Virus record (IMG/VR): IMGVR_UViG_2877973648_000003
Length of the DNA stretch: 9,854 nt
Reading direction: 5' to 3' (one strand)
Origin: a virus
Taxonomy: Duplodnaviria > Heunggongvirae > Uroviricota > Caudoviricetes
Of the stretch, positions 3,286 to 9,854 are shown one piece after another. The position numbers were made by a program, and so were the translations under genes. The notes beneath the pieces are model-generated. The model did no database searches, was not told the DNA's origin, and saw only the letters and a program-made list of their open reading frames with translations. Position 1 is the first letter of the stretch, and each line of letters begins with the position of its first letter.

Positions 3286-3900
3286 TTATCTAAAAGTCTT
3301 TCCACTTTTAACATCTAGGTATATTCTGTTCGACAACGTCATTCCTCCGCAATATGTGAAATAGATGTTTTCACCCTTATTGCTTGATGCCATCCACCCT
3401 CCGATTTCCTTAAAATCGCTTTCCGTGCAGACCCCTTCATTTATTAACTTCCTAGCTGCCGAAGAAAACTCTTTTTTGTATATACGGTAGTCATCAGATC
3501 CTTTGATTAAAGTATCATCTCCGCTCGCATTTTCAGCAGGATCTGATGGCCTTTCACTGCTAAGATCACTAAATTTAACCCATTCTGAAAACTTGCCATT
3601 AACGATTCCATTTTTTCTTGTGCAGGATTTATTACCTTCTTTAATATATTCGCTTTCCCCTCCAACACATGAGGCTGAATATGGCTCAGTTATACGAACC
3701 CATTCACCTTTTTTTTCTAGAAAATCTACGCCTTCCCTGAAAAATAGTTTCCCAGCCACTCCACATTTACTTGAAGGGCAGGTATGTCTTTCCGTTCGAT
3801 CAACAACAACCCATAGTTTTGATTCATTTTTTGCCATTGCCGATGGTATTTGAGATGAGACAATTAACGTAAGCCCTAAAATTAGTATTGATTTTTTCAT
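3286..3900 (-). CDS. Secreted or periplasmic Cys-rich protein, 204 aa, unknown function (AT-rich moron)
   Basis: N-terminus MKKSILILGLTLIVSSQIPSAMA-KNE is a classical Sec signal peptide with an AXA cleavage motif. The mature part is hydrophilic with about 8 Cys. SD AAGGAAA lies 6-7 nt upstream of the ATG. The gene is AT-rich and has its own terminator. It does not match Bor, Lom or Cor as I recall them. Confidence 0.7.
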   Translation of the reverse strand: MKKSILILGLTLIVSSQIPSAMAKNESKLWVVVDRTERHTCPSSKCGVAGKLFFREGVDFLEKKGEWVRITEPYSASCVGGESEYIKEGNKSCTRKNGIVNGKFSEWVKFSDLSSERPSDPAENASGDDTLIKGSDDYRIYKKEFSSAARKLINEGVCTESDFKEIGGWMASSNKGENIYFTYCGGMTLSNRIYLDVKSGKTFR

Positions 3901-4198
3901 TGTAATTTCCTTTTACTTTTTACAAAGCGTTTAATCATGGCTGATTATCTCTAAGTGTAGTAACAGCCTTGTGCGAAACATGTTACCAAATCGCCATTTC
4001 AGTGTATCCGCAGTTAGGCTGCCACTTCAAGGATTCCTAATTACATGGTACGTAAGCGTAAAATCCCGTTGGTTGGCGGGTAATAACTCTGATCAAATCT
4101 CCCTTGTCTTTTGCTCTTACGTATGCAGCTCTTGTGTATTCAACCCAGGCCTCCAGTTCAGCAATACGCTTACTTCCATCCGAGATAACACCTTCTAC

Positions 4199-4450
4199 TC
4201 ACGCTGCTCGTTGAGTTTTGATTTTTGCTGTCTCCAGCTCAACACGCAGTTTCCCCACCGTTAGCGCAATATCCTCGTTCTCCTGGTCGCGGCGTTTGAT
4301 GTATTGCTGGTTTCTTTCCCGTTCATCCAGCAGTGTCAGCACAATCGATGGTGTTACCAGCTCATGGAAAAGGTCCGCGTCAAATCCCCAGTTGTCAGGC
4401 ATTGCCTGCTCTGCCGCTTCACGCAGTGCCTGAGAGTGAATTACGCTCAC
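4199..4450 (-). CDS. ea22: Ea22-like protein, N-terminal segment (83 aa) ending at an in-frame TGA; the reading frame stays open for 53 further codons (4040-4198) to a TAG at 4037-4039
   Basis: MSVIHSQALREAAEQAMPDNWGFDADLFHELVTPSIVLTLLDERERNQQYIKRRDQENEDIALTVGKLRVELETAKIKTQRAA resembles the lambda Ea22 N-terminus as I recall it. After the TGA, the same frame reads VEGVISDGSKRIAELEAWVEYTRAAYVRAKDKGDLIRVITRQPTGFYAYVPCN. Its 3' end overlaps the start of the TraR-like gene. Confidence 0.55.
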   Translation of the reverse strand: MSVIHSQALREAAEQAMPDNWGFDADLFHELVTPSIVLTLLDERERNQQYIKRRDQENEDIALTVGKLRVELETAKIKTQRAA

Positions 4451-4668
4451 TTCGAACCTCTCTGTTTACTGATAAGCTCCAGATCTTCCTGGCAACTTGC
4501 ACAAGTCCGACAACCCTGAACGGCCAGGCGTCTTAGCTCATCTATGGGATCGCCACACTCACAACAATGAGTGGCAGATACAGCCTGGTGGTTCAGGCGG
4601 CGCATTTTTATTGCTGTGTTGCGCTGTAATTCTTCAATTTCTGATGCTGAATCAATGATGTCTGCCAT
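4447..4668 (-). CDS. DksA/TraR-family C4 zinc-finger protein (73 aa), lambda Orf73/TraR-like
   Basis: 73 aa with paired Cys-x2-Cys motifs (CCEC ... CRTCASC) and the size typical of TraR-family proteins. It sits where lambdoid phages carry their TraR homologue in the early-left operon. Confidence 0.75.
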   Translation of the reverse strand: MADIIDSASEIEELQRNTAIKMRRLNHQAVSATHCCECGDPIDELRRLAVQGCRTCASCQEDLELISKQRGSK

Positions 4669-4766
4669 CTTCCATTAATCCCTGAATTGTTGGTTAATAC
4701 GCTTGGGGGTAAATGCGAGCAATAAAAAAGGAGCCTGTAGCTCCCTGATAATTTTGCTTTTCATGT

Positions 4767-5048
4767 TCATCGTTCCTTAAAGACGCCGTTTAACATGCCG
4801 ATTGCCAGGCTTAAATGAGTCGGTGTGAATCCCATCAGCGTTACCGTTTCGCGGTGCTTCTTCAGTACGCTACGGCAAATGTCATCGACGTTTTTATCCG
4901 GAAACTGCTGTCTGGCTTTTTTGATTTCAGAATTAGCCTGACGGGCAATGCTGCGAAGGGCGTTTTCTTGCTGAGGTGTCATTGAACAAGCCCCATGTCG
5001 GCAAGCATAAGCACACAGAATATGAAGCCCGCTGCCAGAAAAATGCAT
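4767..5048 (-). CDS. Small early-left-operon protein (lambda orf61-like); start ambiguous (93 aa from 5048, or 71 aa from the ATG at 4982)
   Basis: ORF in the expected position and orientation. The 5048 start lies 10 nt after the upstream gene stop and has no obvious SD. The internal ATG at 4982 overlaps the TGA of a 5-codon upstream mini-ORF (ATGA), a translational-coupling arrangement. Confidence 0.5.
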   Translation of the reverse strand: MHFSGSGLHILCAYACRHGACSMTPQQENALRSIARQANSEIKKARQQFPDKNVDDICRSVLKKHRETVTLMGFTPTHLSLAIGMLNGVFKER

Positions 5049-5058
5049 TCAGTGGTTG

Positions 5059-5250
5059 TCATACCTGGTCTCTCTCATCTGCTTCTGCTTTCGCCACCAT
5101 CATTTCCAGCTTTTGTGAAAGGGATGCGGCTAACGTATGAAATTCTTCGTCTGTTTCTACTGGTATTGGCACAAACCTGACTCCAATTTGAGCGAGGCTA
5201 TGTGCCATCTCGATACACGTTCTTAACTCAACAGGAGATGCTTTGTGCAT
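5059..5250 (-). CDS. Small early-left-operon protein, 63 aa (lambda orf63-like)
   Basis: 63-aa ORF with a G-rich SD (GGGGGG) upstream. Size and position match lambda orf63. Confidence 0.6.
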   Translation of the reverse strand: MHKASPVELRTCIEMAHSLAQIGVRFVPIPVETDEEFHTLAASLSQKLEMMVAKAEADERDQV

Positions 5251-5368
5251 ACAGCCCCCCGTTTATTATTTATCTCCTCAGCCAGCCGCTGTGCTTTCAG
5301 GGGATTTCTGATAACAGAAAGGCCGGGAAATACCCAGCCTCGCTTTGTAACGGAGTAGACGAAAGTGA

Positions 5369-5593
5369 TCGCACCTACCGGAAACAACGCGCGGCGCTCT
5401 TTACTCGTTCGTCTATAACGTGGGCGCAGGCAATTTCAGAACATCTACTCTTCTTCGCAAAATAAACCAGGGCGATATCAAGGGCGCATGTGACCAGCTA
5501 CGTCGCTGGGCATACGCTGGCGGTAAGCAATGGAAAGGCCTGATGACTCGTCGTGAGATTGAGCGTGAGGTCTGTTTGTGGGGGCAACAATGA
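5369..5593 (+). pseudogene. 3' remnant of an endolysin gene (T4-type/P21-type lysozyme R); N-terminal catalytic part absent and frameshifted upstream
   Basis: In-frame translation ...[71 protein letters not shown] matches the C-terminus of E. coli cryptic-prophage lysozymes as I recall them. There is no start codon. An in-frame TGA at 5366-5368 and a shifted frame lie upstream. The stop overlaps the Rz start (ATGA). Confidence 0.75.
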
Positions 5594-6054
5594 GCAGGGT
5601 AACCGCGATTATCTCCGCTCTGGTTATCTGCATCATCGTCTGCCTGTCATGGGCTGTTAATCATTACCGTGATAACGCCATTACCTACAAAGCCCAGCGC
5701 GACAAAAATGCCAGAGAACTGAAGCTGGCGAACGCGGCAATTACTGACATGCAGATGCGTCAGCGTGATGTTGCTGCGCTCGATGCAAAATACACGAAGG
5801 AGTTAGCTGATGCGAAAGCTGAAAATGATGCTCTGCGTGATGATGTTGCCGCTGGTCGTCGTCGGTTGCACATCAAAGCAGTCTGTCAGTCAGTGCGTGA
5901 AGCCACCACCGCCTCCGGCGTGGATAATGCAGCCTCCCCCCGACTGGCAGACACCGCTGAACGGGATTATTTCACCCTCCGGGAACGACTGGTAATGATG
6001 CAGGCCCAACTTGAAGGTGCTCAGCAATACATAACCGAGCAGTGTTTAAAGTAA
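5590..6054 (+). CDS. Rz: Spanin, inner-membrane subunit Rz (154 aa)
   Basis: [60 protein letters not shown]... matches lambda Rz as I recall it, with an N-terminal TM segment and coiled-coil region. The ATG overlaps the endolysin stop. The ORF track's longer 5578 start is an in-frame GTG upstream. Confidence 0.9.
5810..5995 (+). CDS. Rz1: Spanin, outer-membrane lipoprotein subunit Rz1 (61 aa), embedded in the +1 frame of Rz
   Basis: [24 protein letters not shown]... has a lipobox (VVGC) and a proline-rich mature part. It is fully nested inside Rz in another frame, as in lambda. Confidence 0.85.
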
Positions 6055-8752: not shown

Positions 8753-9715
8753 TTACACCTGTACGACGTTATACCATGTGCCATTGATGTATTTTTGTAT
8801 TGGTCTGAATACTGCCGGATCATCGCCATCAACTGCACCGATAATGCCAAGCCCCGTAATTGCATGACCTGATTTCTCATACATCACGCCTTTTTGCATA
8901 GTCTGAACAACACGTGTACCAAGTCGGACATCTCTCACATAACGTGAGTCAAAATTACCATAATTGCCGGGAATAACTTGCGCACCGCAAAGCCAGTTGC
9001 CATTGTTGTCCATGTACGCCTGACCATCGGTGCCATTGGCTGTCCTTGAGTTATTAATCATGTAGATGCCAAATTGCTTATTCCCCAGTCCACCAATCAT
9101 AAATTTGCGATCAGCGTGGTCCTGACGAAGTAATGCCTGCGCACCATCGGTGGATACCGCATTGCGTCCCAAAATAACATTCTGGTCACGCATATGAATC
9201 CACATGCCGGTACTACTGTTAATTGCAAAACGGTTTGCAAATATATCCCCTGTAACATCAAGACCATGCCCCATGCTTATCCGACCAGTTCTGAGATTAA
9301 GCGTAAAGGGGCGTAGTGGCCCTATATCACCATTTTCTCCCTCATTCTCTCGTGTAGGGATGATATGCAGGCATTCTTCAGAACGACGAAAAATAGCACC
9401 AAAAGATGAATTAAATATCCTCAGTGCATTGACTGTCGATATTTTTACTTCACTGCTGAAAAGGGCTTTAACAAGGACAGACAAAGCATCCCATTTAAGA
9501 GTCATCAGGTCTTTTGTTGTGGTGCTCTGGCGGCTTCTCCATTTGAAATATTCATTGCCGTTGTCGCCTGTTTCAAACCACATGTATGAATCAGTGTCGC
9601 TGTCGGCATTATTTTTAAAACCAATCTTTGCCCAGTCAGTATTTCTAATCCAGGCAAGGATTGAGTCGTTTTCAAAAGTAAGCCCACCGGACAAGGTATC
9701 GCCATTCTTTTGCAC
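8753..9715 (-). CDS. stf: Side tail fibre C-terminal variable cassette (320 codons), without its own N-terminal constant region
   Basis: Tail-fibre-like C-terminal sequence (NGDTLSGGLTFENDS..., Gly/Asn/Thr-rich). The open frame begins at a GTG (9713-9715) only 10 codons after an in-frame TAA that lies inside the crossover site. It is immediately adjacent to the pix-like site and tfa follows. This is the Sv'-U' arrangement of Gin/Pin/Cin invertible segments. Confidence 0.8.
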   Translation of the reverse strand: MQKNGDTLSGGLTFENDSILAWIRNTDWAKIGFKNNADSDTDSYMWFETGDNGNEYFKWRSRQSTTTKDLMTLKWDALSVLVKALFSSEVKISTVNALRIFNSSFGAIFRRSEECLHIIPTRENEGENGDIGPLRPFTLNLRTGRISMGHGLDVTGDIFANRFAINSSTGMWIHMRDQNVILGRNAVSTDGAQALLRQDHADRKFMIGGLGNKQFGIYMINNSRTANGTDGQAYMDNNGNWLCGAQVIPGNYGNFDSRYVRDVRLGTRVVQTMQKGVMYEKSGHAITGLGIIGAVDGDDPAVFRPIQKYINGTWYNVVQV

Positions 9716-9739
9716 GGCGTTCCTGGCCCTGTTTACCGT

Positions 9740-9765
9740 TTCCTGTAAACCGAGGTTTTAGATAA
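9740..9765. other. Gin/Pin/Cin/Hin-family DNA invertase crossover site (gix/pix-like)
   Basis: TTCCTGTAAACCGAGGTTTTAGATAA is a near-exact match to the recalled gix site TTCCTGTAAACCGAGGTTTTGGATAA. It consists of imperfect inverted 12-bp half-sites around a central dinucleotide and lies between the fibre cassette and the invertase start. Confidence 0.75.
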
Positions 9766-9819
9766 TGGCGGTTTCTGGCCTGCATGGCATGATTTGTGCT
9801 TTTGGACGGGAGATTCAGC

Positions 9820-9854
9820 GTGCTGATTGGCTATGTAAGGGTATCAACAAATGA
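9820..9854 (+). CDS. pin: Serine DNA invertase (Pin/Gin family), first 11 codons only; continues beyond the window
   Basis: GTG-CTG-ATT-GGC-TAT-GTA-AGG-GTA-TCA-ACA-AAT translates to (M)LIGYVRVSTN, the conserved N-terminus of Pin/Gin/Hin invertases including the catalytic Ser region. SD GGGAG lies 7 nt upstream. The TGA formed by the last three bases of the window is out of frame. The call rests on very little sequence. Confidence 0.6.
   Translation, partial: MLIGYVRVSTN

Follow-up and report, generated by a model that had tools for sequence, protein, structure and literature searches.

The ea22-like locus on the minus strand of the window (the whole stretch of 9,854 nucleotides that was analysed) is very probably a decaying gene of an E. 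coli prophage remnant, which would have been broken by a +1 and then by a -4 indel. The locus itself is already known: it is a frameshifted pseudogene in RefSeq, and published work covers both the family and its mosaic C-termini. A preliminary description had presented the gene as split by a single in-frame TGA, and had read this stop as a recent nonsense mutation leading to pseudogenisation, as a sequencing or strain polymorphism, or as a stop that is partially read through. Pseudogenisation stands, and PGAP flags the locus accordingly: in two genomes it is annotated as a pseudo 'ead/Ea22-like family protein', with the qualifiers frameshifted, incomplete and missing C-terminus.

The minus-strand frame opens with a GTG at 4450..4448 and runs for 83 sense codons to a TGA at 4201..4199, as can be read from the sequence and its translation. 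In the same frame, 53 further sense codons (VEGVISDGSKRIAELEAWVEYTRAAYVRAKDKGDLIRVITRQPTGFYAYVPCN) separate this TGA from a TAG at 4039..4037, and the TGA is the only stop that interrupts the resulting frame of 137 codons. This is the arrangement that had first been reported, and its estimate of roughly 0.08 for 53 codons remaining open by chance was also fair: (61/64)^53 is 0.079, an estimate based on composition gives 0.053, and in the six-frame translation of the window 7.0% of the runs between stops reach at least 53 codons. Frame openness is thus weak evidence and the argument must rest on homology, as had already been said; it is indeed the homology to Ea22 relatives that settled the matter. 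One correction is needed, which is that the single TGA lies in 27 nt (4222..4196) that have lost the register of the ancestral gene and are flanked by a +1 insertion and a -4 deletion.

The assignment of the gene to the Ea22 family is well founded. The 83-aa ORF matches the Pfam family Ead_Ea22 (PF13935) with 74.8 bits, for a gathering cut-off of 27 bits, over profile positions 2-110 of 139, and it matches phrog_250 with an E-value of 1e-36. Once the frame is repaired, the match to PF13935 rises to 100.2 bits and covers profile positions 2-139, the domain ending at residue 101 (..KRIAELE). At the DNA level, megablast against phage records gives 94.6% identity to lambda over 549 nt, and 94.6-95.8% across lambda and its relatives. 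The genes of the pL strand follow each other on the minus strand in the order DUF1317, DUF1382, a 71-aa hypothetical ORF, TraR/DksA-like, ea22-like, xis and int, so that the ea22-like gene lies in the exo-xis region downstream of the orf73/TraR-like gene, in the same order as in lambda and PhiR11_1. The TGA of the upstream TraR/DksA-type gene overlaps the GTG of the ea22-like ORF (..AAGTGAGC..), an overlap that makes continued translation of the 83-aa ORF probable. This ORF retains the N-terminal segment together with roughly two thirds of the coiled coil; its last 7 codons (IKTQRAA) derive from the frameshift. The last 29 profile positions and the C-terminal tail are left untranslated, and no promoter-like or terminator-like site was found on the minus strand in 4037..4200. 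Since the frame is not uninterrupted, the gene of the window is a pseudogene or a truncated member of the Ead/Ea22 family rather than an intact one.

In Ea22 proteins, a short N-terminal part precedes a conserved coiled coil, and the C-terminal part varies from phage to phage (PMC7093339, PMC10834534). Their pro-lysogenic effect on the phage developmental decision is documented for lambda and Stx phages only (PMC10834534, PMC7093339). The window shares with lambda ea22, a pro-lysogenic exo-xis gene whose product has 182 aa and belongs to PF13935, its position between exo and xis, the overlap with the orf73/TraR-like gene, the GTG start, the N-terminal segment and the coiled coil up to ..KRIAxLE. 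It differs from it in the frame, which is broken by the +1 and -4 indels and yields a product of 83 aa, and in the C-terminus, which is an alpha/beta domain in lambda and an unrelated ancestral tail of 37 aa in the window. The K/R-G-E tripeptide that is reported to be common to the C-termini of the lambda and Stx-phage Ea22 proteins (PMC7093339) is absent from the tails of the window and of its two intact relatives, P0008 and L106, all of which end in ..YAYVPCN.

When the DNA of the window is aligned to the ea22 genes of lambda and PhiR11_1, exactly two indels are found, +A and -TTAC, which are 26 nt apart and have the TGA between them (Table 1). The extra A makes GCAAAAATC in the window out of what is GCAAAATC in both lambda and PhiR11_1, and the loss of TTAC leaves GAGTAGAAGG where they have GAGTATTACGAAGG. 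The 4-bp deletion site comes after the premature stop, and as +1 and -4 sum to -3, the start-codon frame is resumed in the DNA 3' of 4195. From 4222 to 4196 the window reads ATC AAA ACT CAA CGA GCA GCG TGA GTA, and the ancestral reading of the same stretch is TCA AAA CTC AAC GAG CAG CGT GAG TAT TAC (SKLNEQREYY). The TGA is thus the out-of-frame T-G-A of CAG CGT GAG. These events fully explain the impression of one in-frame stop with 53 open codons behind it: the +1 shift exposes the TGA and the -4 deletion restores the register. The two indels also account for a difference in length in the lambda-type megablast matches, which span bases 1-549 of the query for 552 bases of the record, as seen in the alignment with lambda and PhiR11_1.

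Table 1. Features of the ea22-like locus and its upstream neighbour, in coordinates of the window.
Feature	Position	Strand	Evidence
TraR/DksA-type zinc-finger gene upstream, homologue of lambda orf73, 73 aa	4447..4668	-	ORF list, sequence, PGAP product name, lambda-type arrangement
Truncated ea22-like ORF, 83 codons + TGA	4199..4450	-	Pfam PF13935, phrog_250, PGAP pseudo
A5 run with the +1 A insertion	4222..4226	-	DNA alignments; A4 in lambda, allele B and the intact L147 and L106
Stretch outside the ancestral register, 27 nt, with the exposed TGA (4201..4199)	4196..4222	-	DNA and protein alignments
Site of the 4-bp deletion, TTAC of ..GAGTATTACGAAGG..	4195..4196	-	DNA alignments; L111 has A5 yet retains TTAC
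Untranslated end of the Ead_Ea22 coiled-coil domain, EGVISDGSKRIAELE (codons 86-100)	4151..4195	-	Match to lambda Ea22, Pfam extension
Untranslated C-terminal tail module AWVEYTRAAYVRAKDKGDLIRVITRQPTGFYAYVPCN + original TAG	4037..4150	-	100% DNA identity to the 3' end of the L147/P0008 gene; L106 variant

Decay of the gene would have started with slippage in the A4 run, adding one A, so that the +1 shift would expose the TGA eight codons further on and cut the product to 83 aa. The TTAC deletion would have come later, just 3' of the stop and in DNA that was no longer translated. The dead 3' part would then have returned to the start-codon frame by coincidence, through the sum of +1 and -4, and would mimic a gene with a single in-frame stop. 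The two indels, the intact alleles and the +1-only allele are directly seen in the sequences; the order of the indels and the coincidental nature of the restored register are what we infer. Two sequences carry the insertion without the deletion (A5 + TTAC): L111 is the sequence of the window except for the TTAC, which it retains, and L112 is visibly mosaic. L111 corresponds to the expected intermediate, with the frameshift first and the deletion later, though both L111 and L112 could be recombinants.

The alignments identify the downstream open codons as a remnant of the same ancestral gene. That they continue the Ea22 sequence, as had been proposed, holds for 15 residues when lambda is taken as the reference; there is a mosaic boundary with respect to lambda ea22 at about 4151, and the last 37 codons form a different C-terminal module, without relation to the C-terminal domain of lambda Ea22. 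Their membership in the ancestral gene comes from elsewhere. An exhaustive HMMER search with the 53-aa stretch against 1.84 billion representative proteins gave 15 matches, one of which (P0008) is an intact Ead_Ea22 protein of 148 aa that ends in ..LELAKSKLNEQREYYEGVISDGSKRIAELEAWVEYTRAAYVRAKDKGDLIRVITRQPTGFYAYVPCN and is encoded on the metagenome contig L147. The DNA of codons 101-137 of the window (4150..4040) is the same as that of the 3' end of this gene. From the A run to past the TAG, L147 differs from the window by having A4 instead of A5, by the presence of TTAC and by one substitution, and is otherwise identical; the genes that follow it downstream are also those of the window (204 aa, 112 aa, DUF2513 and 55 aa). 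A scan of metagenomes with a 29-mer of the tail, followed by a classification script, yielded a second intact variant, L106, with an ORF of 182 aa. These two genes have the coiled-coil end and the tail of the window in an uninterrupted frame, but their N-terminal modules differ from it, as expected of a mosaic. They establish that the ancestral gene did run through the tail, and that intact relatives have no stop where the 83-aa ORF ends, contrary to the proviso that homologues might naturally end there. The protein encoded by the ancestral gene had ~138-182 aa, in which a variable N-terminus preceded the Ead_Ea22 coiled coil and a short tail ending in ..YAYVPCN. A single-sequence AlphaFold model of P0008 (mean pLDDT 68) predicts one long helix up to about residue 127, the last 20 residues being of low confidence.

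A word-indexed protein search with the 53-aa tail returned six short fusion proteins only and missed P0008. The exact 29-mer of the tail had 0 matches in species-representative genomes, in which the sole match to the protein pattern of the tail, from Undibacterium, was spurious, being a GrpE coiled coil. Three queries representing intact alleles (the repaired window sequence, L147 and L106) were compared with 5,426 complete E. coli genomes, and there was no intact copy among the best matches from the 128 complete genomes that bear the tail. Their best full-length matches were either the type found in the window, which we call allele A (98.0% or 97.4%, gapped), or a second type, allele B (97.0% or 96.5%).

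The script classified the window and all fetched loci, L147 being found later. Allele A (A5 + delTTAC) is present in 50 sequences, the window and 49 loci, which come from IMG/VR, metagenome and Logan assemblies, RefSeq genomes and one phage record, and which fall into 16 haplotypes. Allele B (A4 + TTAC with two TAG codons) is found in 8 sequences, the +1-only allele in the 2 already mentioned, and the stop-free intact allele (A4 + TTAC) in 1, L106, to which L147 was then added. In more than 60 listed complete E. coli genomes, allele A gives the best full-length match; these genomes come from many hosts, and the allele lies on chromosomes as well as plasmids. It is also carried at 100% identity by an isolated phage, Chlobot, which means that it is no sequencing artefact and that a viable phage can do without the gene. 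Within IMG/VR, the A5 allele is confined to 32 contigs, all of which bear this tail, and none was found with other C-terminal modules; this limits it to one lineage-specific lesion and argues against a recurrent 'short isoform' of Ea22 genes. In Chlobot, an antisense ORF of 97 aa (window 3971-4264, plus strand; locus L002 5437-5721) is annotated as a hypothetical CDS; nothing in PHROG matches this ORF, which is probably a shadow of the coding strand.

Allele B has neither of the indels and keeps the lambda-like frame, but two in-frame TAGs, which derive from GAG and TGG, stand at the start of its tail (CTG TAG GCC TAG). Its product is a protein of 105 aa with a complete Ead_Ea22 domain, and PGAP qualifies it as 'incomplete; missing C-terminus'. 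It is found in IMG/VR and metagenome loci (L037-L043 and L107) and in E. coli strain 1409 (L148, NZ_CP063369). It shares with the window the gene, the position and the DNA of the tail, which is likewise untranslated, and it differs in having the two TAGs in place of the +1/-4 indels. Allele B is an independent loss of the same C-terminal tail. Both alleles coexist in E. coli strain AREA_C483, at separate chromosomal sites.

Such a repeated loss raises the possibility that the tail-less, coiled-coil-only form of Ea22 (83 aa in the window, 105 aa in allele B) has been selected as a functional protein, the downstream DNA being a leftover. We consider this unlikely, although the two independent routes to tail loss speak for it, together with the rarity of the intact alleles (two metagenome contigs, and none among the best matches of the 128 complete E. 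coli genomes), the start that is still coupled to the upstream gene, and a pN/pS between the window and L106 of ~0.15 in the coiled-coil core and ~0.85 in the tail, ratios that are based on very small counts. Against it, the 50 allele-A sequences are nearly identical and go back to one event, so that their number does not amount to independent counts, and decay goes on, as three of the haplotypes carry further lesions in the N-terminal ORF itself (a T-run of L020 has gained one T, and L023 and L029 have deletions upstream). The 83-codon ORF shows no clear constraint within allele A, with 5 distinct non-synonymous and 3 distinct synonymous changes when the recombinant L108 is excluded, the product of the window loses positions 111-139 of the Pfam domain, and PGAP treats both alleles as pseudogenes. 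The tail of allele A has itself accumulated the changes R>S, A>T, A>V and P>S for one synonymous change; neither this polymorphism within the allele nor pN/pS contains enough changes to decide.

Some observations do sit less comfortably with decay. The double mutant is found in 50 sequences and the single one in 2, an excess for which hitch-hiking may not be the whole reason. The 83-codon ORF has stayed open in most allele-A haplotypes and the second lineage keeps a tail-less ORF too, and on this comparison the truncated protein may be functional. The double loss of the tail and the rarity of intact copies might hint at selection for the tail-less form, though these are essentially two independent events. 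Taken broadly, a non-neutral loss of the tail, with selection favouring a coiled-coil-only Ea22 or acting against the tail, or a -4 deletion that compensates for UGA read-through, is in our view quite improbable. If the tail were selected against, it could for example be toxic, or be sensed by a host defence.

Read-through deserves its own consideration. Of the stop codons of E. coli, UGA is the leakiest, and leaky or programmed read-through of the TGA could give some full-length protein, in which case the -4 deletion would be a selected compensation; the exact restoration of the frame and the excess of the double mutant over the +1-only allele (50 to 2 sequences) would then make sense. We nevertheless find this very unlikely. 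The stop is not conserved: it is absent from that position in intact relatives, and allele B stops elsewhere and shows the tail to be dispensable. In the +1-only L111 and L112, the tail is out of frame. Nor is there a stable, stimulatory RNA structure around or after the stop, as the fold of 4235..4110 has -23.6 kcal/mol and a z of +0.77, 158 of 200 shuffled sequences folding at least as well, and Rfam gives no match at E <= 1 in 3800..4800. A read-through product would moreover bear a scrambled coiled-coil segment that is one residue shorter, and the changes in the tail of allele A are mostly non-synonymous.

The simplest of the early readings, in which a point nonsense mutation recently split a collinear ea22-like gene, draws on the fact that one stop only is found in the 137-codon frame, and is highly improbable. 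Indeed, no base was substituted: lambda, PhiR11_1, allele B and the intact alleles all have the same T-G-A, spread over the codons CGT GAG, and it is the extra A in 4226..4222 that exposes it. In addition, nine codon positions at the stop (IKTQRAA, TGA, V) do not match the ancestral SKLNEQREYY. A sequencing or assembly error in this one record, such as a miscall in the A4/A5 homopolymer run, which is a typical error site, is barely conceivable, given that A5 and delTTAC occur together, identically, in the window and 49 loci of several assembly sources, in the more than 60 complete genomes with their many hosts and platforms, and in Chlobot, and that a 4-bp deletion is not a homopolymer error; the same distribution does not support the polymorphism that had been proposed.

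The motif of the tail, WVE(C/Y)TRAAYVRAKDKG(E/D)L.RV.T, is shared with proteins of the type of CYRAN_97 from phage Cyrano, with 69-77% identity over ~26-28 aa, and the profiles phrog_20174 and phrog_21749 match it with E-values of ~1e-8. The rest of these proteins, which have 208-285 aa and are encoded by phages of ~108 kb, is unrelated and has no Ead_Ea22 match, and the motif is internal in them, not C-terminal. The motif is found in the window at 4040-4150 (minus strand), in CYRAN_97 itself (L005 1051-1713), in L045-L071 and in L095, a contig in which a Cyrano-type NTWVEC start is fused to a window-type end, ..RQPTGFYAYVPCN. From these comparisons, the tail motif looks like a small mobile module.

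A number of deletion derivatives (P0001-P0006, P0009, P0010, L086-L090 and L099) join the tail in frame to the N-termini of other genes of the pL operon, including Gam, RecT/Bet, DUF1382/orf63 and the TraR-like gene, among others. The junctions of these fusions cluster within ~60 nt upstream of the tail. We considered a recombination hot spot there and set it aside, as ascertainment is simpler: in allele A, only the in-frame junctions between the TGA and the tail yield proteins that bear the tail. The clustering is therefore probably a matter of ascertainment, although the ..KRIAELE.. boundary may be prone to recombination.

The surroundings of the locus are those of a reduced prophage. The window is E. 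coli DNA, with 100% identity over all its 9,854 bases to several RefSeq records (e.g., NZ_CP123310). Its lambdoid prophage remnant adjoins a Dps-family gene and carries int, xis and the exo-xis accessory genes on the minus strand. Directly past the latter come a truncated lysozyme gene, Rz/Rz1, trkG, a ParB-like gene and tail-fibre fragments; the remnant lacks exo, bet, gam, the immunity and replication regions and most late genes. At 5223-5600, DUF1317 (orf60a-like, minus strand) abuts the 5'-truncated lysozyme gene (plus strand), which PGAP annotates as an rrrD fragment at ~5375-5593. The prophage is either a large-deletion remnant or a hybrid of a lambda-like left arm with a lysis-trkG segment of the Rac/DLP12 type. 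The spanin genes are intact in their usual arrangement, with an Rz1-like lipoprotein ORF (5810-5995) out of frame inside an Rz-like gene (5578-6054), both on the plus strand. Directly downstream of the tail, at 3286-3900 on the minus strand, lies the gene for a 204-aa protein with a signal-peptide-like N-terminus and a full-length match to phrog_8310. It always occupies this place in related loci (L086-L090, L147), and it may be a moron that travels with the tail module.

At the other end, the tail-fibre gene is truncated (8753-9854 and beyond; L004 12820-15854), and behind the remnant NZ_CP123310 carries a recombinase fragment, IS26, a Tn3 transposase fragment and a plasmid repA gene. Records of ~304 kb and ~454 kb also match the window at 100% identity, which places the region within or beside integrated plasmid or mobile DNA.

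The 53 downstream codons should not be annotated as a gene, and the same holds for the antisense ORF of Chlobot. On the side of method, the locus teaches that an apparent single in-frame stop followed by a long open frame can stem from two successive indels (+1 and -4), and that only the alignment to intact and +1-only alleles reveals such a double origin. The exo-xis region is dispensable for phage replication (PMC10834534). The biological weight of the finding is small: this is a textbook case of accessory-gene decay in a prophage, in a family and a region that have already been described.
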